A stretch of 64,000 bases of DNA from contig CAYQLG010000008.1 of assembly GCA_964418235.1 (NCBI GenBank), positions 2,164 to 66,163 of the forward strand. The letters run 5' to 3'. The notes under the pieces are model-generated. The model made no database searches and was not told the DNA's origin. It saw only the letters and a program-made list of their open reading frames with translations. The translations under genes and the position numbers were made by a program. Positions 1,540 through 11,565 of the stretch are shown piece after piece (position 1 is the stretch's first letter; every line of letters begins with the position of its first letter). Source of the DNA: an uncultured Planctomycetales bacterium (GTDB taxonomy: Bacteria > Planctomycetota > Phycisphaerae > UBA1845 > Fen-1342).

Positions 1540-4500
1540 CTACTTCGCCGTCGTCAGCTTCGACTTGTCCGGCACCGGCGGCGGCGGCGAAGACTTCGGC
1601 GGATTTTTCTGGATCGCCTCCATCACCTCTTTGATCGCGCGGTCGAGTTGCGGGTCGCGGCCGGCCAGGAAATCTTCCGGCGTGAACTCGACCTCGATAT
1701 CCGGCTCGACGCCGCGGTTCTCGAGATCCCAGCCGCGCTTCGGCTCATACCAGGCGAACTCGGGCTGGGTCGTGCGGCCGCCGTCGACGAGCAACTTGTC
1801 GCCGCGAATGCCGATGACGCCGCCCCAGGTGCGCATGCCGATGACCGGACCGAGGCCGCGAATCTTGAAGCTTTCCGGGAAGATGTCGCCGTCGGAGCCG
1901 GCGTTCTGATTGACGATCACCGCTTTCGGGCCGATGTGCGTGCGAGCGGGATAGCGGGCGGTGACGCCGCGGCGCGGCCGCATGTAGGCCCATGTTTCGC
2001 GCGCGAGGCGCTGAATGAGCATCTGCGAGACAAACCCGCCGCCGTTGAAGCGGATGTCGATGACCAGGCCGTTCTTGTTCACCTGCGGATAGAAACCCTT
2101 GATGAATTCGAGCAGACCCGGCCCGCCCATGTTCGGCAGATGGAAATATCCGACCGTGCCTTTGGTCTGTAGCCAGACATATTCGCGATTGCGCCGCACC
2201 CAGTCGCGATAGCGCAGTTGCGACTCCGAATCGAGCGTCTCGATCTGCACGTCGCGCGCGTCGCCGCGGTCAGCGGCCTTGCCGACGGTCAGCACGACCT
2301 GCTTTCCGGCGAGTCCCTGCAAGTGCTGATGAACGCTCTCGGCCGGCTTGACCTCGACGCCATTGATCGCGAAGAGATATTCGCCCTCTTGCACATTGGC
2401 GTGCGTCATCGTCAGCGGCGATTTGACGTAGGTCTCCCACACTTCCGGTCGGAGGATGCGCTTGAAGCGATGCCGCCCGGCAGTTTTGTCGAGTTCGAGG
2501 TCTGCGCCGAGCAGGCCGACGCCGACCGTCTTGGCCGTTTCGAGATCGCCGCCGGAGACATACGTGTGGGACGTGCCCAGTTCGGCGATGAGTTGGCCGA
2601 TCAGGTCGTTCAGCTCCGCGCGCGTACTGACGCGGGCGACGAGCGGAGCGTATTTCTTGTATGCGCCCTCCCAATCGACGCCGGCCATGTTTTCAGCCCA
2701 GTAGAAATCCCGCTGAAGTCGCCACGACTCGCGGAAAATCTGGGCCCATTCGCCTTTCGGCTCGACTGAAAGCGGCAGCGTGGCGGGGTTGAGCTTCTCG
2801 ACGTCTTTGTCTTCCTTGTCTTTGCCGTCGCCGGGCTTGCTGTCCGTGCCGACGACGAGGATTTCTTCGCCGCTGCCGCGATAGGCGAGCTTCTTGCCGT
2901 CGGCGCTGGTCGTGTAGTCGCGGACCTTGTCGATGAAAAGCTCGTGCTTTTTCTTCTTCAGGTCGTAGACGCGCAGCGCCCGGCGCGCATTCCCGGCGTC
3001 GGGATTGGCCCAGCCCTCCATCAAGCCGGTCGTCGGCGACGTCGCGAAAAAGACCTTGCCGCGGATCGGCGCGAGGCCGCCGTAGTTGTCCGGCGGCGCC
3101 GGGAACTCGACGACGCGCTGCTGAATACCCTCGACATCGAGCTTCACGACCGGCAATTCGCGCGGCTTGTCCTTGGCTTTCCCGGATTTCTCGTCTTTCT
3201 CGTCTTTCTTGCCGTCCTTGTCATCCTTGTCGTCGGCGCTGTCGGGCAGCAGTTCATCCGGCAGGAATGGCGAGCGGCCGTCTTTCGCGAGAATCACGCA
3301 ATAGAGCTTGTCGGGCTTGATCGTGACATGCTCGAAGTCGAACAGGTCCATCACCGGGTTGAACGTGCGCGCGCCGATGAAGTAGAGGTACTTTCCATCC
3401 GGGTCCCAGGCCGGCTCGCGGTCATTTGAAAACTCCGCCGTCACGCGCGCCGGGGTCTTGCCCTCGACGCCCCAGATCCAGATCGAGTTCAACTCGGTGT
3501 CGTTCTGCATCGTGTATGCGAGCCACTTCCCATCCGGCGACCACGAGTATTCTGTGATCTCCCAGTTGGGGCTTTTGTCGACGACCGTGCTCGCGCCGCT
3601 CTCCGCGTCCACCACGTAGAGCGTCATCGTCAGATCGGCGTACGCGATGTGCTTGCCGTCAGGCGACCACTTCGGCGGAAAGAGCCAGCCCTTGCCGGCT
3701 TTGGTCAGCAGCCGCGGCTTGCCGATCGATTTGCCCGCTTCGCCCGCGCCGGGCACGTCGAAAATCGCCAGCTCCTGTTCGCCGGTTTCATCGGTGATGC
3801 AGGCCACGCGCTTGCCGTCGGGCGAAAACGTCGCCATGCGCTCACGCACGGCGGAACCGGCGGTTAGCCGGATCATGCGCCCGCCGGGCTTGGTCGCGGT
3901 CACCCAGAGTTCGCCGCGCGTCCCGACCAGGAGCCGCTTGCCCTCGTCGTCGAGTTCATAGCTTTCGAGCGTCTTGGCGGCGTCTTCGAAGCGCGGCTGT
4001 TGGCGCAGCCGATCGCTCGGCAACTCGACGGGAATCTTGGTGTCCTTACCGGCGGCGATGTCGAGCAGCCACAGATCGCCCGCGAGCGAATAGACCAAAC
4101 GCCCGCCCTGCAGATCGGGCCAGCGCGCGTCAAAGTCGGTGTGCCTGGTGTGCTGTTTCACGTCGGCGCCGTCGGGCTTGGCGGAGAAGACGTTCATGCG
4201 GCCATCGCGATCCGAGAGGAAGAAGACGCGCCCGTCACTCCAGAGCGGGAAGCGGTCGTCACCGTCCCAATCGGTGATCTTCGTGAATTTGTTGGTGCTC
4301 AGATCGCCGACCCAGATGTCATCGGCCAGGCCGCCGCGATAGCGCTTCCACGTGCGGAACTCGAGCGACCAGCGATTGAAGGCGATGTACTTGCCGTCGC
4401 CGGAGTAGGACGCGAGACAGCCATAGCCGAAGGGCAGTTGCTGCGGCTCGCCGCCGGTCAGCGGCACTTCGAAGAGGTACCACTCGCGGTTGTTGGTGGT

Positions 4501-4872
4501 GCGCTGGCTGCGGAAGATGAGCGACTTGCCGTCGGGCTTCCAGCAGAGCACTTCGTCGCGCCCGGGGTGCCAGGTCAGGCGCGTCGGCTCGCCGCCCTCG
4601 GCGGCCATGACATAGACATCGAGGTTGCCCTGATATTCGCCAGAAAAAGCGAGTTGCTGGCCGTCGGGGCTGAAGCGGGGGAAGAACTCATTGCCGGCGT
4701 GGGTTGTGAGGCGCTTGGCCACGCCGCCGGCGGTCGAGGTCTGCCACAGATCACCCTCGGCGCCGAAGACGATGGTGTCGCCGTGGATGGTGGGGAACTG
4801 GTAATAGCCCGCGACGCCCGCGAAGGCGGGAGCGGCGGCCAGCAGCACAATGAAAGTGGTACGAAGTGCCAT
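1540..4872 (-). CDS. Tricorn-protease-like S41 peptidase (TolB/WD40-type propellers + PDZ + S41 core)
   Basis: 1110-aa ORF with ATG at 4872 and signal peptide MALRTTFIVLLAAAPAFAG. Repeated propeller motifs FSPDGQQLAF, WSPDGKHIAY, WSPDGKWLAY. C-terminal S41-like core IDIRFNGGGFVSQ. Two Lys/Asp-rich low-complexity inserts. Confidence 0.85.
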   Translation of the reverse strand: MALRTTFIVLLAAAPAFAGVAGYYQFPTIHGDTIVFGAEGDLWQTSTAGGVAKRLTTHAGNEFFPRFSPDGQQLAFSGEYQGNLDVYVMAAEGGEPTRLTWHPGRDEVLCWKPDGKSLIFRSQRTTNNREWYLFEVPLTGGEPQQLPFGYGCLASYSGDGKYIAFNRWSLEFRTWKRYRGGLADDIWVGDLSTNKFTKITDWDGDDRFPLWSDGRVFFLSDRDGRMNVFSAKPDGADVKQHTRHTDFDARWPDLQGGRLVYSLAGDLWLLDIAAGKDTKIPVELPSDRLRQQPRFEDAAKTLESYELDDEGKRLLVGTRGELWVTATKPGGRMIRLTAGSAVRERMATFSPDGKRVACITDETGEQELAIFDVPGAGEAGKSIGKPRLLTKAGKGWLFPPKWSPDGKHIAYADLTMTLYVVDAESGASTVVDKSPNWEITEYSWSPDGKWLAYTMQNDTELNSIWIWGVEGKTPARVTAEFSNDREPAWDPDGKYLYFIGARTFNPVMDLFDFEHVTIKPDKLYCVILAKDGRSPFLPDELLPDSADDKDDKDGKKDEKDEKSGKAKDKPRELPVVKLDVEGIQQRVVEFPAPPDNYGGLAPIRGKVFFATSPTTGLMEGWANPDAGNARRALRVYDLKKKKHELFIDKVRDYTTSADGKKLAYRGSGEEILVVGTDSKPGDGKDKEDKDVEKLNPATLPLSVEPKGEWAQIFRESWRLQRDFYWAENMAGVDWEGAYKKYAPLVARVSTRAELNDLIGQLIAELGTSHTYVSGGDLETAKTVGVGLLGADLELDKTAGRHRFKRILRPEVWETYVKSPLTMTHANVQEGEYLFAINGVEVKPAESVHQHLQGLAGKQVVLTVGKAADRGDARDVQIETLDSESQLRYRDWVRRNREYVWLQTKGTVGYFHLPNMGGPGLLEFIKGFYPQVNKNGLVIDIRFNGGGFVSQMLIQRLARETWAYMRPRRGVTARYPARTHIGPKAVIVNQNAGSDGDIFPESFKIRGLGPVIGMRTWGGVIGIRGDKLLVDGGRTTQPEFAWYEPKRGWDLENRGVEPDIEVEFTPEDFLAGRDPQLDRAIKEVMEAIQKNPPKSSPPPPVPDKSKLTTAK

Positions 4873-5068: not shown

Positions 5069-5704
5069 TCACTTCTTCGGCGCTACGCCGACCAGCGCCG
5101 TGCGGATTTCGACCTTGTCCGCGACCAGGGCCGAGCCTTTGGCGCTGTCCACGCCGAAGTCCTTGCGCATCACGTCAAAATCGCTGCGCACGACGAATAG
5201 ATCGCCCTCGCGGCCGCCCATGCGCTCGCCGAGCTTTCCAGGCAGATATTCGATCCGCAGGCCGATCGTGATCGATTTGGTTTTGCCCTTCAGCGTGAAA
5301 TCACCGGTCGTCTCCAGCTCATATTTGTTCTCACCGCCGGCGCGCACGCTGTTGACGCCCGTGATTTTGAATTCGATCGTCTTGTGTTCCTCGACGTTGA
5401 ACCAGTCCTTGCCGTGCAAGACCTCGGTCATCTTCGCATTGGTGCACTTCACGCTGTCGGCGGCGACGATGATCGTGCCGGTGAGCTTGCGCGGATCGGC
5501 GGGATCGAACGAGAGCTTTCCGGTAACGCCGGAGGCGACGCCGAAGATCGGCTCCAGCGCCGAATCGGCGCTGAACGTCATCGCGTTGACGCCCTTGGGA
5601 TCCTTGAAATCGAACTCGATGGCATCAGCGGCCTGGAGACTCGCGGCCCCGAGCAGGGCCGTGGAAATCACGAGAAACAGTGTGCGATTCAGCTTCACGA
5701 GCAT
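5069..5704 (-). CDS. YceI-like periplasmic beta-barrel protein
   Basis: 211 aa with signal peptide LFLVISTALLGAASLQA. Segments FDFKDPKGVNAMTF and TGDFTLKGKTKSITI are typical of the YceI family. Confidence 0.8.
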   Translation of the reverse strand: MLVKLNRTLFLVISTALLGAASLQAADAIEFDFKDPKGVNAMTFSADSALEPIFGVASGVTGKLSFDPADPRKLTGTIIVAADSVKCTNAKMTEVLHGKDWFNVEEHKTIEFKITGVNSVRAGGENKYELETTGDFTLKGKTKSITIGLRIEYLPGKLGERMGGREGDLFVVRSDFDVMRKDFGVDSAKGSALVADKVEIRTALVGVAPKK

Positions 5705-6091
5705 GGTCCTCTTGTCAGTTTTTTACGGCGCCGTCGGCACGTTGAGCGGCCGACGGTTCCAAACGCCGCGAGGGATTTTAGCCGAAAACCGCCGCGCACG
5801 GCTGGGCTGCTCGAAGCTGGAATGCGCACGCTGTACACGGGCCGGATCGCCTGCTGCGGATGAATCGGCGGCGCAGCGGGTGGGCCGATCGCGTCCGCAG
5901 TCGGAGGCTCGAGCGATTGGGGCCCTCGGCGGCATCGAATCGGTTTCAGTCGGGCGCGGCGTGGTTCTGCGTGCGCACGGCGCGAGCATGTCGGTGCGGT
6001 CTGTAGACGGCTTCATCCGATTCCGGCGCATCGGCCCAACGCCGATGCTCGTCCGCCTTGCTTTTCGTGGTGCAGAACCCGAATCACTGCA

Positions 6092-7429
6092 TTACTTGAT
6101 CCGCTTGCGGGCAACGTTGCTGGGCGCGTCTTCGGGGTTGACCGTCGGTGGGAAGCCGTTGAGCTGACGCCAGATTTCCCAGCCCAGCGGCACCACGTCG
6201 AGCAATACCCAGCCTTTGGCTCGCACGCCTTGGCGGAGGTAGTTCGCCTCGGGCCAGGGCTGGTCTTTGGGGTCTTGCACAACGAGCACGCGAAAGCGGC
6301 CCTTGCCGTCATCGGTGGGGTCGATCAGCGTGACGATGCCGCCAAACGTGCCGACCGCGACGGAGGGCCAGCCGACAAACTGCACCGCGGGCCAGCCCTC
6401 GAATTGCAGGCGCACGTGCCGGCCCTCGCGCAGCAGCGGAAAATCATTGCCATCGACCCATAGCTCGACCGCCGTCTCGCCGCCTTCGGGCACGAGCATC
6501 ATCAGCGTCCGGCCGGCTTGCACGATTTGGCCGCGCTCGGCGGCGGTCAGGCGGAAGACCGTTCCGTCGCGCGGCGCGGTGATGATGCGGGCGTCCATGC
6601 GCGAAATGTCACGCTCAATCTGAAGCTTTCGGCGGCGGGCGTCCTCGAGCTGAGTCTTGGCGTCGTTGAGCGCGGCATCCGCGGCGGCGAGATTGGAATT
6701 GGCATCGGCCCGAATGCGCTCGACGTCGGCGCGGGCCGATTGCACGTCGCTCTGCGCGCCGCTCAGATTCGCCTGCGCCGATTTCAGATTGGCGATGCCC
6801 ACGTCCAGATTCGCCTTCGCGACTTCGAGGTCGCGCTCGGACGCCAGCCGCGGCTTTTGGTCGTACAGTTGCTTGACGCGATCATATTGCAACTCATCGC
6901 GGAGCTTGACCGCCTCGGCGCTGCGCAGGTTTTCCTCCGCCGACGCCAGCCGCTCCTTGATCATCCGTTCGCGATATTCGGCCGATTCGACGGCGTTGTC
7001 GCGCTGCAGGCGCAGGTTGTCGAGCCGCAGCATCAGGGCGTCAATCTTGCTGGCGGCCTGCTGCTCCTGCTGCTCGATGGCGAGCCGCTCGCGGTCGAGC
7101 CGCTCGGCAAATTGCGGGTCGATGTCCTGCAACTCGACGAGCGGATCGCCGGCCTTGACCTGCGAGCCTTCCTCGACGTGCCAGCGCAGGATGCGCCCAG
7201 GGATCGTCGCGTCGATCGTCTGCTGCCGGTCCATCGGGTTGGTGCGCGAGAGAAATCCGGCGCCATTGATGCTTTGCTGCCACGGCAAGAGCGGCAGACC
7301 GATCGCACCGACGACCACCATGCCGAGAATCGTATTCGCGGCGCGTTGTGCGACCCGCGGGCTGGAGACCAGATGGAGCGTCGGCAATCCGGCGCTGTCA
7401 TGCAGCGACATCGCGCGGGTACGGTTCAT
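6092..7429 (-). CDS. HlyD-family periplasmic adaptor (membrane fusion protein)
   Basis: ORF 6092..7582. The internal ATG at 7429 overlaps the stop of the upstream ABC gene as ATGA (7429-7426). N-terminal TM ILGMVVVGAIGLPLL, lipoyl-like hairpin IPGRILRWHVEEGSQVKAGDPLVEL, long coiled-coil segment, C-terminal barrel. Confidence 0.8.
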   Translation of the reverse strand: MNRTRAMSLHDSAGLPTLHLVSSPRVAQRAANTILGMVVVGAIGLPLLPWQQSINGAGFLSRTNPMDRQQTIDATIPGRILRWHVEEGSQVKAGDPLVELQDIDPQFAERLDRERLAIEQQEQQAASKIDALMLRLDNLRLQRDNAVESAEYRERMIKERLASAEENLRSAEAVKLRDELQYDRVKQLYDQKPRLASERDLEVAKANLDVGIANLKSAQANLSGAQSDVQSARADVERIRADANSNLAAADAALNDAKTQLEDARRRKLQIERDISRMDARIITAPRDGTVFRLTAAERGQIVQAGRTLMMLVPEGGETAVELWVDGNDFPLLREGRHVRLQFEGWPAVQFVGWPSVAVGTFGGIVTLIDPTDDGKGRFRVLVVQDPKDQPWPEANYLRQGVRAKGWVLLDVVPLGWEIWRQLNGFPPTVNPEDAPSNVARKRIK

Positions 7430-9723
7430 GCAGGCTCCTCCACCGGCTCGAGGCCGGCGCCATTGAGAATCGGAAGCAGTCCATTGAGGTCGGTCGGCCC
7501 GAGCCGTCCCTCGACCAACGGAATGATCCGGTCGCAGCCGCGCACCGCTTCCGGCACGCAAGTCAGGATGAGCACGCTCCACGGCGCGTCGGCCGCGTAG
7601 AGGGCGCGCTTGACCTGCTGCAGGCTGGCCTCGTCGAGATCGTCAAGCACGCCGTCGAGCACGACCAGCCGCGGGCGGGTCGCGAGGGCGCGGGCCAGCA
7701 TCAGCCGCCGCGCCTGGCCGAACGAGAGCGGGCTGCCGGTGGCGGAGAGCACGGTCTCCAAGCCGTCGGGCAGCGCGAGCAATTCGTCGAGCAGGCCGAC
7801 GTCGGTCAGCGCCTGGCGGGCGCAGGCGGACGAGACCTCCGGGCGGCGCATGCGCACGTTCTCGAGGATGTCGCCCTCGATGATTTCGAGGCCGCGGATC
7901 AGTGCGACCTGCTCGCGAAGCGCTTCGAGCTGCACGTTGCGCAGGTCGATACCGTCGATTTCGAGGTGGCCGTGGTCGGGCATGCGCAGGCCGTTGACGA
8001 GGTCGCCGATCGTGCTCTTGCCGGCGCCGTTGCGGCCGACGATTGCGACGCGCTCGCCGGGATCGACCCGCAAATTGACGTGCTTGAGGATCGGGCGCTC
8101 GGGGTCGTAGGAGAAATCAACGTCGCGCAGGATGAGCCGTGCGCCGACGCTGCTGGCCGCGAGCGTTTCGCCGGCGGTGCGTTCGAGCGGCAGATCGATC
8201 AGATGGCCGATTTTGTCAACGGAGGCGAGGAGGTCGTAGAAGCTGTCAAAGTGCTTGCCGCTCTTGACCAGCGACGCCAGCAGCGTCGAGACGATCAGCT
8301 CTGAGGCGACGAGCTGGCCGAGCGTGAGCTGACCATCGATGACCAGCCAGCCGCCGATCGTCAATAGGGCCGTGCTGGCCAGGACGAAGAGCGCGACCAT
8401 GCCGATGATCTGACGGATGACGATGTTGAAGTGAGCGCGGCGCGCGGTGAGATAGCGAAAGGCCAGCGTGTCGGCCCGCTCCTGGGCGAAGCGGGTTCCG
8501 CCGTTGTGTTTGAAGGTCGTCGGGTTACGAGCGATCTCTTCGAGCGAAGCGGCGACGCTGTATTTCGCGACCGATTCCTGGATCGCCGTCCGCACGGCGC
8601 CGCGCCCGACCACGAAAATCACGACCGCAATCACGAGCAACATGATCAGCGCGAAGACCAGCAGGTAGGGGTGGTAGAGCGCGAGCAGCACCAGACCGAT
8701 GAAGACCTGCAGCACGAGCGCCAGGCCGTCGAGCATGAGGGCGGCGCCGGCCTTTTGCAGGGTCAGCACGTCGAAGAAGCGATTGACCAGCTCCGGGCCA
8801 TGGCCGCGGTCAAACGCATCGACGCGCACGCGCGGCAAGCGCCAGGCCAGATCCGCCACGACGCGTATGAAGAGCCGACGCTGAATGATCTCCACCACGT
8901 ACGTATTGAGCAGACGAATCGAGCCATCCAGCAGCAGAAACGCCGCGAGCAGAATTCCCAGAATGAACAGCGGCTGCAACAGGCCGCCGAACGCAACCGT
9001 GTTGACCAGTGACTGCACGGCGACCGGCACGGTCAGACCCAGCACTCCCAGGGCGACGGCGAAGATGAAGATCATCCGCAGATCGCGGCGCTCGGGCCAG
9101 AGGATCAGCATCAATCGACGCAGCGGAGGGAGGTGGGCGTGACCGCCCGCATGGCCGCCGGAAGCGCCATGGGCGTGCTCGGCCGCGTCATGCGTGTGCG
9201 GCGCGCCCGGCGCCGCGTGGGCAGACTGCATGTGGTGGATTGAGCGGGCCTCCTCCAGCGGGGCCGCCGGCTGGCAGGAGAACCACTCCAGCGGCGCGGC
9301 GGGAGATTCCGCCAGCATCTTCTCCAACTCATTGATTTTCAGACGGTCCTCACGCGATCCGTGTGGCGTGAAGATCGTCACCCGCGCCCTCGAGCCATTG
9401 CTTTCGCGCAACAAGATGAGCGTCGCGTCGGGGGCGCCAGGCAGCAACGCCACGAGCGGCGTGCGCTTGGAGACAAAGTGCAGCGCCTCGCGTACAGGCA
9501 ACGTCACCGGACTGAGCCGCAAACCAAGCTGGCCGGCGATCGCGCGGAGCCGAACCGGCCAACTCGTCGCCAGGCCATGCAAGGCATGCTCGCAGGCACG
9601 GCGGATGGCGGGCGCTTCGCGCCGCTGACCGAGAGCCGCCGTCAGCGTGGAAAACAAATCGAGTAAGGCGGTGGGCACGGCCACATTCGGGCCGGGCGAT
9701 ATGGTTTCGTCTGAATGTCCCAT
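7426..9723 (-). CDS. ABC exporter (fused TMD-NBD) with N-terminal accessory domain, His-rich linker and atypical NBD
   Basis: 765 aa, ATG at 9723. About 160-aa N-terminal domain in the position of a C39-like domain, but no catalytic Cys motif is seen. His-rich stretch at aa 163-197. Multi-TM exporter core. Walker A GRNGAGKST (8012-8040), signature LSFGQ, Walker B region LVVLDGVLDDLDE (7630-7674). Confidence 0.8.
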   Translation of the reverse strand: MGHSDETISPGPNVAVPTALLDLFSTLTAALGQRREAPAIRRACEHALHGLATSWPVRLRAIAGQLGLRLSPVTLPVREALHFVSKRTPLVALLPGAPDATLILLRESNGSRARVTIFTPHGSREDRLKINELEKMLAESPAAPLEWFSCQPAAPLEEARSIHHMQSAHAAPGAPHTHDAAEHAHGASGGHAGGHAHLPPLRRLMLILWPERRDLRMIFIFAVALGVLGLTVPVAVQSLVNTVAFGGLLQPLFILGILLAAFLLLDGSIRLLNTYVVEIIQRRLFIRVVADLAWRLPRVRVDAFDRGHGPELVNRFFDVLTLQKAGAALMLDGLALVLQVFIGLVLLALYHPYLLVFALIMLLVIAVVIFVVGRGAVRTAIQESVAKYSVAASLEEIARNPTTFKHNGGTRFAQERADTLAFRYLTARRAHFNIVIRQIIGMVALFVLASTALLTIGGWLVIDGQLTLGQLVASELIVSTLLASLVKSGKHFDSFYDLLASVDKIGHLIDLPLERTAGETLAASSVGARLILRDVDFSYDPERPILKHVNLRVDPGERVAIVGRNGAGKSTIGDLVNGLRMPDHGHLEIDGIDLRNVQLEALREQVALIRGLEIIEGDILENVRMRRPEVSSACARQALTDVGLLDELLALPDGLETVLSATGSPLSFGQARRLMLARALATRPRLVVLDGVLDDLDEASLQQVKRALYAADAPWSVLILTCVPEAVRGCDRIIPLVEGRLGPTDLNGLLPILNGAGLEPVEEPA

Positions 9724-9934
9724 CAGCTACCTTCATCTCGCGGGGCTGTTCGACGGTCTGCGTACCGGCGTGGATCCTACGGACACGCCGGTTCGGGCGG
9801 CGGATTTCAAACTTCGCAAACACTTTGTAGGCGGCCGGCGGCCGATTTCTGCCGGCGCATTCTGATCGAAAGCTCCTCAATTTTTTGAGGCCGCCGCCAC
9901 GAATCTGGCGCCGCGCCAGCTTGTACCAACTAAC

Positions 9935-9958
9935 TTATTGTAGTTATTGAGATTATTG
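9935..9958. promoter_or_regulatory. Three direct TTATTG hexamers at exact 9-bp spacing in an AT-rich island upstream of the ABC-HlyD operon
   Basis: TTATTG at 9935, 9944 and 9953 (minus strand CAATAA x3). About 210-235 nt upstream of ATG 9723. The surrounding DNA is GC-rich. Confidence 0.4.
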
Positions 9959-10211
9959 CATGGAATCGGCGTTGCTCCGGCCCCGCTTGGTCGACGCTTG
10001 TATTGTTCTTTTGCTGCGGGCGGTTCCAGCAAATGAGCAAATTTGGAACGGCCAGTCGGCAGTGCCTCAATCAAGTCGCATGTGGTGCTGGGCCAGGCAA
10101 TGCAACGGTGGGCAGCCTTGCGACTCGATTGCGCGGGCTACGGCCCCGTGCAGAGGGCATATGCCCTGAGAGCCGCCGGGCTGTGCCGGGGCACTGAGGG
10201 GCTTTTGCGGC

Positions 10212-11357
10212 CTAGCCACCCTTGCCCGCGACTTCGGCGGTCTCGCCGGCTTTGTGAAGCAGCCCGCCGGGGCCGGCCTGACCACGGGCCTTGGCCTCGA
10301 TTTTGGCCTGGAACTCCGCCGGGAAGCGCGAGCGCTCGAGGCAATCTTCCGCGCCGCAGGTGCCCTCGTCGTAGAGCTTCCAGAGATGCTCATCGAGGAG
10401 TTGCATGCCGTACTTCTTGCCGGTCTGGATTGACGAGTCGATGCGATAGGTCTTGTTTTCGCGGATCAGGTTGCCGATCGCGGGCGTGACGAGCAGGAAT
10501 TCATACGCCGCGCGCCGGCCGGCGCCGTCGGCCGTGGGAACCAGCGACTGCGACAATACCGCCAGCAGCGTGGTCGAGAGCTGCACGCGGATCTGCTCCT
10601 GCTGCTGCGTCGGGAAGGCATCGATGATACGGTTGATCGTGCCCTGGGCGCCGGTCGTGTGCAGCGTGCCGAAGACCAGGTGGCCCGTCTCGGCGGCGCG
10701 AATGGCGGACTCGATCGTCTCAAGGTCGCGCATTTCGCCGACGAGGATGACGTCGGGATCCATACGCAGGGCGCGGCGGAGGGCCTCGGCAAAGCTCGGC
10801 ACGTCGACGCCGACCTCGCGCTGCGTAAAACAGCATTTTTGATGCGTGTGGTAATACTCGATCGGGTCTTCGACGCTGATGATGTGGCGATCGCCGACCT
10901 GGCGATTGATGTAGTCGAGCATCGTTGCGAGCGTGGTGGTCTTGCCCGATCCGGTCGGGCCGGTGACGAGGAACATCCCGCGCGGACGATGGCACAGCTC
11001 GCGCACCGCATTGGGCAGGCCGATGTCATTGAATGAGAGCAGCTTCGATGGAATCAACCGCAGCACCATCGAGATGTTGCCCTTCTGCCGAAAGACCGCC
11101 ACGCGGAAGCGGCCCTTGTCGCCAAAGGCAAAGCCGAAGTCGGTGCCGCCTTCTTCCTGCAGCTCCTGCTGATTGCGTTCGGGCGTGACGGATTTCATCA
11201 ACGCGACGGTGTCGTCGGGTTCGAGCGTCTTGGTCTCGAGCGTGCGCAGCCGACCGTGGATGCGAATGACGGGCGCGCGGCCGACGTGAATGTGAATATC
11301 TGATCCGCCATTGCGGATACATGTTTCGAGCAGACGATCGATATGGACGGTTGCCAC
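10212..11357 (-). CDS. pilT: Type IV pilus retraction ATPase PilT (twitching motility protein)
   Basis: Motifs GGSDIHI, Walker A GPTGSGKTTT, HIISVEDPIEY, ILVGEMRDLETI, GHLVFGTLHT. The ORF opens at GTG 11426. GTG 11357 (VATVHIDRLL), 9 nt after GAGGG, fits the PilT N-terminus better, but the start is uncertain. No other pilus genes adjacent. Confidence 0.85.
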   Translation of the reverse strand: MATVHIDRLLETCIRNGGSDIHIHVGRAPVIRIHGRLRTLETKTLEPDDTVALMKSVTPERNQQELQEEGGTDFGFAFGDKGRFRVAVFRQKGNISMVLRLIPSKLLSFNDIGLPNAVRELCHRPRGMFLVTGPTGSGKTTTLATMLDYINRQVGDRHIISVEDPIEYYHTHQKCCFTQREVGVDVPSFAEALRRALRMDPDVILVGEMRDLETIESAIRAAETGHLVFGTLHTTGAQGTINRIIDAFPTQQQEQIRVQLSTTLLAVLSQSLVPTADGAGRRAAYEFLLVTPAIGNLIRENKTYRIDSSIQTGKKYGMQLLDEHLWKLYDEGTCGAEDCLERSRFPAEFQAKIEAKARGQAGPGGLLHKAGETAEVAGKGG

Positions 11358-11565
11358 GCGGCGGCCCTCATGATGGTCTTGTGCGATCCGGCCGCGCGAA
11401 ACGCTGCATCGGCGGCGTCGGATCACGACGACGACGGCGCTAGCGCCGTCATCTCATCACCCTGATTCTACACCGGATTCATGGCGGGCGCGCGGATTGC
11501 CGCTCTAATTCCGACGAGCGGCCAGGGCAAGGGGATTCACACAGTTATCGTGAAGATGCGAAGGT

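Follow-up and report, generated by a model that had tools for sequence, protein, structure and literature searches.

Single-gene, HlyB-like ABC exporters with degenerate catalytic sites form a large family spanning several phyla

We analysed a 64,000-nucleotide stretch of contig CAYQLG010000008.1 (assembly GCA_964418235.1, an uncultured Planctomycetales bacterium), hereafter the window, in which the minus strand encodes a 765-amino-acid ATP-binding cassette (ABC) exporter subunit, P0001. P0001 retains the motifs that bind ATP and lacks most of the residues that catalyse its hydrolysis, and such losses run through the family of single-gene exporters to which it belongs. The explanation we favour, which as a whole we hold to be probable though well short of certain, is that P0001 is the inner-membrane subunit of an envelope-spanning exporter resembling HlyB and the peptidase-containing ABC transporters (PCATs), and that it would form a homodimer whose two identical sites bind ATP and hydrolyse it extremely slowly or not at all.

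Results

P0001 keeps its ATP-binding motifs and lacks three canonical catalytic residues

The open reading frame at 7426-9723 on the minus strand is open over its full length. Pfam detects ABC_membrane at residues 217-484 (score 51.7, cut-off 28) and ABC_tran at residues 546-690 (81.2, cut-off 25), and an AlphaFold2 (AF2) model built from a 59-sequence alignment (predicted local distance difference test (pLDDT) 86, predicted template modelling score 0.87, blocks of 94-98 within its nucleotide-binding domain (NBD)) has a six-helix transmembrane domain (TMD) followed by the NBD, identifying P0001 as an ABC exporter of the type IV fold. The PDB folds closest to the model are HlyB from the HlyB/D complex (8dck_A) and PCAT1, with TM287/288 also among the top folds. 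The best NCBIfam models describe NHLP-type and HlyB-type type I secretion system (T1SS) exporters, and P0001 scores far under the cut-offs of all of them, including the HlyB-type models TIGR01846 (199.6 against 725.55) and TIGR03375 (198.1 against 693.1).

Motifs were assigned from HMMER alignments to P-glycoprotein-type chains of solved exporters and from MAFFT family alignments, which agree on all motifs but the Q-loop. An original prediction, made from the DNA sequence by eye, had described this NBD as keeping its ATP-binding motifs while carrying Gly for the Q-loop Gln, Gly for the catalytic Glu and Cys for the H-loop His. The nucleotide-binding motifs are indeed present: the A-loop Tyr (Y539), GRNGAGKST, LVVLD with the Walker B Asp, and LSFGQ, in which Phe replaces Gly at the third residue. 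In the HMMER alignments G691 takes the place of the catalytic Glu and C722 that of the H-loop His, and the codons for D690 and G691 are GAC GGC at 7656-7651, exactly as predicted, with GGC at 7653-7651. The X-loop Glu upstream of the signature is also absent. Overall, P0001 retains nine of nine binding motifs and one of four catalytic residues, and 43 other family members have the same tally.

The Q-loop Gln is missing as well, so that profile alignment puts the canonical Gln, Glu and His at none of the three sites, but the residue in place of the Gln is ambiguous because a one-residue deletion in the family sits exactly there. HMMER, counting from the upstream anchor R603, aligns the Gln with G611; MAFFT with canonical paralogues, counting from the downstream anchor N622, aligns it with R610. 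Six of 235 relatives carry Gln at 610, and in three of these (P0024, P0057 and L146) D/E/G-P comes next; this favours 610 as the true position of the Q-loop Gln. The change in P0001 may accordingly be Gln to Arg instead of the predicted Gln to Gly.

Absence of the canonical catalytic residues is common to the family

We compiled motif statistics from 235 non-redundant family members. Nucleotide-binding residues are mostly kept, among them the Walker A Lys (95%) and Ser/Thr (99%), the Walker B Asp (99.6%), the signature Ser/Thr (99%) and Gln (94%), and the A-loop Tyr/Phe (76%). N622 is found in every member (100%). The coupling motifs of the intracellular loops (ICLs) are mostly kept too, with ELVNRFFD in ICL1 strongly conserved. 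By contrast, the catalytic Glu and the switch His are free to vary. Position 691 is E in 85 members, G in 64 (27%) and D in 62, the remainder having N, R, A, Q or S; position 722 is H in 83 (35%), R in 39, G in 35, N in 22, S in 18 and Q in 13, with others in the remainder. The Q-loop Gln is kept in at most six members and the D-loop Asp, 697, in 70%. None of the 235 has all four catalytic residues.

In a rooted FastTree phylogeny the family is a single clade on a long branch off the canonical paralogues, and residues 691 and 722 have changed independently many times within it. In this tree P0001 clusters with P0002, whose residues at these positions are D and R, and its nearest relative is about 51-53% identical. 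Whether orthologues conserve the exact Gly/Gly/Cys combination had been proposed as a check, and they do not: Cys at the H-loop position is essentially unique to P0001. Judged from the alignments, the conserved trait is the absence of canonical catalytic residues, not these particular substitutes.

Several residues are nearly invariant and specific to the family. Near the active site these are D694, which replaces the D-loop Ser (D or E in 99% of members), and E613 (E or D in 94%), and position 610 is K or R in 80%. In the TMD, where 91 positions are at least 90% conserved, most of them family-specific, they include D332 in transmembrane helix 3 (TM3), H351, and E475 in TM6, none of which is found in canonical exporters. 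This pattern bears on a rival explanation, that P0001 is a working ATP-driven pump with a non-standard catalytic arrangement, using D694, E613 or the basic residue at 610, in which G691 and C722 do not abolish hydrolysis. The conservation of these residues is what such a pump would lead one to expect, the conserved Walker A and signature motifs indicate selection on nucleotide handling, and the catalytic Glu and the His persist in 36% and 35% of members, respectively. However, D694, E613, E475, D332 and H351 all persist in the 11 members without the Walker A Lys, which suggests a role independent of ATP catalysis; it makes D694 and E613 unlikely substitutes for the catalytic residues and weakens the case for either as an alternative catalytic base. 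The mixtures at 691 (E/D/G/N/Q/R/A) and 722 (H/R/G/N/S/Q) look like the drift expected of unconstrained sites, and the NBD evolves faster than the TMD, as described below, unlike that of a canonical control. We therefore regard a working pump of this kind as improbable, although it deserves to be kept in mind.

The NBD is retained under relaxed purifying selection

We estimated dN/dS (omega) by the NG86 method on pairs of congeneric genomes. The TMD had an omega of 0.01-0.06 and the NBD one of 0.06-0.2, including in lineages with Gly at both 691 and 722, and NBD dN was three to five times TMD dN. By contrast, a canonical ABC exporter from the same genome pairs had about equal dN in TMD and NBD (0.012/0.018 and 0.066/0.055). 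Because the NBD of the family gene diverges so much faster than its TMD while omega stays at 0.06-0.2, we conclude that purifying selection still maintains the NBD, but with a constraint that is clearly relaxed, which is opposite to the pattern usual in ABC proteins. The dS of P0001 itself is saturated against every relative. P0001 departs from the consensus at only five of the 91 conserved TMD positions and one of 29 conserved NBD positions, within the normal family range.

The exporter gene is coupled to an adaptor gene, and its outer-membrane factor is encoded elsewhere

The ABC gene ends in a stop codon that overlaps the start of the adaptor gene (GCATGAAC, with ATGA at 7429-7426), so the predicted translational coupling to an HlyD-family adaptor, or membrane-fusion protein (MFP), is real (Table 1). 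The adaptor contains the Pfam domains HlyD_3, HlyD_D23 and Biotin_lipoyl_2, has EmrA, HlyD and LipC as PDB relatives, and is 38-47% identical to the adaptors of related operons. Among 80 related loci from many phyla, the MFP gene adjoins the ABC gene in 76 and a gene for an outer-membrane factor (OMF) of the OEP family lies downstream in at least 58; there is always one ABC gene. Operons of this ABC-MFP-OMF form, headed by a single family gene, occur for instance in Paludisphaera soli, in strain Pan216 and in a Phycisphaerales metagenome-assembled genome (MAG). The three genes are contiguous in eight of nine relatives from the order to which the window belongs.

The original prediction had noted no OMF, cargo gene or second ABC half nearby. 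This is true of the window, in which we found none of the three, but an OMF orthologue exists on another contig of the same genome (G000:C14:40119-41789, L010:8090-10195, minus strand). Its product has a Pfam OEP domain and shares 46% identity with the OMF in a relative's operon, the next-best match scoring only 52 bits. P0001 therefore has both an MFP and a TolC-like OMF available, as HlyB-type T1SS exporters do. No conserved cargo gene was found across the 80 related loci, and none for an RTX-type or C-terminal-signal substrate lies near P0001. The orphan OMF gene is flanked by unrelated genes, for an epimerase and a D12 methyltransferase-like protein.

A second rival explanation is lineage-specific decay, in which G691 and C722 would be recent inactivating changes and the linked OMF would also have been lost. 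The codons GGC (691) and TGC (722) are each one transition away from the GAC and CGC of the nearest clade, the H-loop Cys has essentially no parallel, the OMF gene is unlinked here and linked in most same-order relatives, and P0001 has no close relative for a selection test. Against decay, the 765-codon frame is intact with its ATGA coupling preserved, the deviations at conserved positions are no more than normal for the family, the orthologous OMF is kept intact elsewhere in the genome, and Gly at the catalytic position is common among members under purifying selection. We consider decay quite unlikely. Non-conservation of the Gly/Gly/Cys set in orthologues had been put forward as a sign of decay; that test does not apply here, because it is the absence of canonical residues and not the set itself that is conserved, in relatives that are under purifying selection.

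The family is large, patchily distributed and single-copy

A protein search with P0001 returned more than 3,600 matches, the top 120 all scoring at least 612 bits and the named ones among them coming mostly from Planctomycetota. A search of 1.84 billion representatives with the TMD only gave 1,304 clusters (50% identity) at E<=1e-30, a number that rises only to 2,412 at E<=1e-3, which indicates that the family is large and its membrane domain distinctive. Scanning species-representative genomes revealed at least 594 family loci. Members occur in Planctomycetota (including Kuenenia), Methylococcales, Myxococcota, Acidobacteriota, Verrucomicrobiota and Bdellovibrionota; named carriers are Methylotuvimicrobium buryatense 5G, Methylomonas defluvii and Methylobacter (Methylococcales) and Cystobacter fuscus (Myxococcota). 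In the phylum of the window the distribution is patchy, with the gene in 35 of 401 genomes and, within the class of the window, only in its own order; it is always single-copy, also in nine other genomes of that order.

Such data bear on a further possibility raised by the original prediction, that P0001 is the degenerate half of a heterodimeric exporter or split system, with a competent partner encoded at another place in the genome. Heterodimers are the classic setting for degenerate sites (PMC7756269), the genome encodes four other ABC exporters, two of them with fully canonical motifs, and at 93% completeness a partner could be unassembled. However, neither this genome nor any other that we searched contains a second family member, the related operons of many phyla carry a single ABC gene, and the translational coupling is to the adaptor gene and not to a second ABC gene. 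Whole-genome tblastn and a Pfam ABC_membrane search for a dedicated partner half, or for a family paralogue, yielded only exporters about 30% identical to P0001, and we rejected these candidates. An obligate heterodimer is thus unlikely, and we give this explanation very little weight. As predicted for a single ABC gene, a homodimer of P0001 would carry two non-canonical sites.

Three short TMD-only matches (P0126, P0137 and P0176) were considered as relatives without an NBD and rejected, since by tblastn their NBD coding sequence still exists, disrupted by frameshifts in long-read contigs or truncated where a contig ends.

The family gene is found in one of seven genomes of the taxonomic family of the window. 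For one congeneric pair (L045 and L047, in genomes G438 and G479), dS of the family gene is about 1.5-1.8, compared with about 0.5 for a canonical ABC exporter of the same two genomes (L152 and L154); together with the patchy distribution, this contrast hints at horizontal exchange of the operon. Some taxonomic labels are doubtful. Contig L072 (JANQQE010000007.1, G461:C12) is labelled 'Alphaproteobacteria bacterium', yet its genome was placed in the same order as the window, and it is probably a mislabelled MAG; the labels 'Akkermansia' and 'Alcaligenaceae' on other MAG matches may deserve similar caution.

The N-terminal domain has a C39-like fold without conserved catalytic residues

Residues 1-160 of P0001, modelled separately with AF2 (pLDDT 83.6), have their best Foldseek matches in the peptidase (C39) domains of PCAT1 and ComA and in the C39-like domain of a Vibrio protein (3b79) (E 1e-4 to 2e-3, target TM-score about 0.62-0.64). 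Pfam did not detect Peptidase_C39 in this domain even at E<=10, and a 20-sequence family profile of the domain found no match in the PDB; the identification thus comes from fold comparison alone. The family consensus contains no conserved Cys or His. On the strength of the predicted fold and of this consensus, the domain is an inactive C39-like domain, as in HlyB, which bears out the original description of a region in the position of a C39-like domain without the catalytic motif.

A His-rich linker follows this domain (Table 1), and such linkers are common in the family: 67 of 153 long-form relatives have at least four His in the 45 residues ahead of a conserved PPxRRL motif, and these His often occur in HG repeats. 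The linker may have a role related to metals, in sensing or cargo. We note it alongside the ArsR-type regulators that lie upstream of eight of the 80 related loci.

Neighbouring genes and upstream region

Genes that recur beside the operon in relatives encode a divergent NhaR-type LysR regulator (21 of 80 loci), a small S30AE-like protein (11 of 80) and the ArsR-type regulators; none of them is present at the P0001 locus. The NhaR-type regulator passes the NCBIfam NhaR cut-off (232 against 219) and lies upstream of operons across phyla, for example at L069:1510-2409(-) and L009:8477-9388(-); the S30AE/HPF-like protein is encoded directly upstream of the operon, for example at L009:9592-9948(+). 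The NhaR-type and S30AE/HPF-like genes suggest Na+/alkaline or stress-responsive control of the operon in relatives.

Three neighbours within the window were considered as clues to the cargo and rejected, as they are not conserved beside the operon in relatives. They are a secreted YceI-like protein of the polyisoprenoid-binding family (5069-5704, minus strand; 388 bp downstream of the adaptor gene), a 1,110-amino-acid tricorn-like protease with PD40 beta-propeller repeats, Tricorn C1/PDZ and Peptidase_S41 domains and a signal peptide (1540-4872, minus strand), and a PilT-family ATPase directly upstream (10212-11426, minus strand). A GspE/PilB-type ATPase gene also lies upstream of the Methylotuvimicrobium operon (L094:3339-5123, minus strand); with a PilT/GspE-type ATPase upstream at only two of 81 loci, this is probably coincidence.

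The region upstream of the ABC gene probably holds the operon promoter or operator. A promoter and terminator scan of 5600-10300 gave nothing useful, with no sigma-70-like promoter by consensus. The AT-rich patch in this otherwise GC-rich spacer contains three copies of CAATAA (TTATTG), which are 9 bp apart and lie some 210-235 nt upstream of the start of the ABC gene, and may be an operator.

Table 1. Coordinates in the window of the exporter gene, its domains and motifs, and the adjoining features.
Feature	Coordinates	Strand	Basis
ABC half-transporter gene (P0001), HlyB/PCAT-like, degenerate NBD	7426..9723	-	ORF, Pfam, AF2 fold matches
N-terminal C39-peptidase-like domain, residues 12-160, without catalytic Cys/His (predicted)	9244..9690	-	AF2 model and Foldseek; family consensus
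His-rich disordered linker, residues 163-197, directly before elbow helix and TM1	9133..9237	-	Sequence; pLDDT <50 at 177-193
Six-helix type IV exporter TMD, residues 200-510	8194..9126	-	AF2 helices, family conservation
NBD, residues 526-745	7489..8148	-	Pfam ABC_tran; pLDDT 94-98; alignments to solved ABC exporters
Walker A GRNGAGKST, intact, K569 (residues 563-571)	8011..8037	-	Sequence and family alignments
Q-loop region VALIRGLE, without Gln, one-residue deletion relative to canonical exporters	7885..7908	-	HMMER/MAFFT alignments
Signature LSFGQ (residues 666-670), Ser and Gln kept, first Gly replaced by Phe	7714..7728	-	Sequence and family alignments
Walker B and D-loop LVVLD-G-VL-DDLD; D690 and D697 kept, G691 for catalytic Glu, D694 (family-specific) for D-loop Ser	7633..7668	-	Alignments
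H-loop region LILTCVP, C722 (TGC) for switch His	7552..7572	-	Alignments, codon check
ATGA overlap of ABC stop codon and adaptor start codon	7426..7429	-	Sequence
HlyD-family membrane-fusion/adaptor protein gene, 445 residues, N-terminal TM anchor	6092..7429	-	Pfam, PDB relatives
Intergenic region upstream of ABC gene, AT-rich patch about 9930-9960	9724..10211	-	Sequence

Discussion

ABC exporters are textbook machines driven by ATP hydrolysis. The usual view is that a degenerate site is tolerated only alongside a competent one. The original prediction had suggested a non-hydrolytic or regulatory transporter-like protein among the possible roles of P0001, and a non-hydrolytic transporter-like protein is the best current reading of its sequence. 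In the mechanism we favour, ATP binding by the P0001 homodimer would serve as a signal for dimerisation or gating and not as fuel. Because the NBD and the coupling motifs are kept, nucleotide-dependent closure of the NBDs probably still gates the membrane domain. Because the catalytic Glu, the switch His and the Q-loop Gln are all lost, the energy for export would come from elsewhere, either from an outward gradient of the substrate or from an ion gradient acting through the family-invariant acidic residues E475 and D332. Canonical exporters are left almost without ATPase activity by loss of either the Walker B Glu or the switch His (PMC7756269), and SbmA/BacA offers a precedent for energy other than ATP, in that a membrane domain structurally related to the ABC exporter TMD works without ATP and is driven by protons through conserved glutamates (PMC8442886). 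A helix map of the AF2 model places E475 about two helical turns below the point where TM6 ends on the periplasmic side; from the model and by analogy we infer, and only infer, that E475 and D332 could be ion-coupling sites.

Several observations weigh against this mechanism. ATP binding and the lack of hydrolysis are both read off the motifs, and some residual ATPase activity may persist in P0001. The conservation of Walker A shows that nucleotide matters, which fits gating and also fits slow hydrolysis. Roughly one member in three has both the Glu and the His, and the ancestral protein may have been a real, if atypical, ATPase. The membrane positions of E475 and D332 come from secondary-structure reasoning. 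The evidence for purifying selection comes from relatives, since dS is saturated for P0001, with its unique pair of G691 and C722, at its distance from the nearest of them. Finally, the OMF gene is unlinked here, unlike in eight of nine relatives of the same order.

A bolder proposal, which we put forward tentatively and regard as doubtful, is that the whole HlyB-like tripartite family has abandoned ATP hydrolysis as its source of power, running instead on an ion gradient (through E475, D332 and H351) or on downhill flux of substrate, with the NBD as a nucleotide-sensing gate or dimerisation module. If so, the family would stand, as a naturally occurring intermediate within a TolC-type machine, between ABC exporters as primary transporters and SbmA-like secondary ones.

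In the open-access literature we found neither a description of the family nor one of homodimeric exporters whose two sites are both degenerate. The family would break the rule of paired sites, as a large, multi-phylum group of single-gene exporters under selection, with two degenerate sites, in TolC-type tripartite systems. It also offers a graded natural series for the role of ATP binding alone, from members that have lost only the Q-loop Gln, through those that keep the binding residues without the catalytic ones (like P0001), to those that have lost the Walker A Lys as well; it could likewise reveal alternative ways of energising an envelope-spanning pump. The culturable carriers Methylotuvimicrobium buryatense 5G, Methylomonas defluvii and Cystobacter fuscus make it experimentally tractable.

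Among known systems, HlyB-HlyD-TolC, a group 2 T1SS with a C39-like domain (PDB 7sgr/8dck), is the best structural match of the full-length P0001 model. The two share their domain order, with an inactive C39-like domain, a six-helix type IV exporter domain and an NBD, as well as an adjacent gene for a TM-anchored HlyD-type adaptor and a TolC-like OMF. However, the HlyB ATPase is fully canonical and essential, whereas P0001 lacks the Q-loop Gln, catalytic Glu, H-loop His, X-loop Glu and first signature Gly; the P0001 TMD carries the invariant E475, D332 and H351, which canonical exporters such as HlyB lack; and the P0001 locus, unlike that of HlyB, has no RTX-type or other cargo gene nearby. 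PCAT1 and ComA share the fold of the N-terminal domain, and their cores are among the top sequence and fold matches. PCATs are active ATPases, usually without an OMF, and the P0001 system has neither the catalytic Cys and His of a C39 peptidase nor a gene for a double-glycine leader peptide.

The heterodimers TM287/288, TmrAB, BmrCD, TAP1/2, ABCC1 and CFTR show the same kind of substitutions as P0001, with the Walker B Glu changed to Asp or another residue, the H-loop His lost and the signature altered, and their degenerate site binds ATP tightly without hydrolysis (PMC7756269). They always pair it with a competent site in a second NBD, whereas P0001, the product of a single ABC gene in the window as in the related operons, would form two identical degenerate sites, a homodimeric case that PMC7756269 does not discuss. 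SbmA/BacA (SbmA-like peptide transporters, SLiPTs), with which we group the NBD-less LmrA for comparison, has no NBD and no coupling helices, imports its substrates and works outside tripartite systems. Of the intramembrane Glu ladder of these proteins, P0001 has only E475 as a clearly intramembrane invariant Glu, and it differs from them in keeping a well-folded NBD and conserved ICL motifs.

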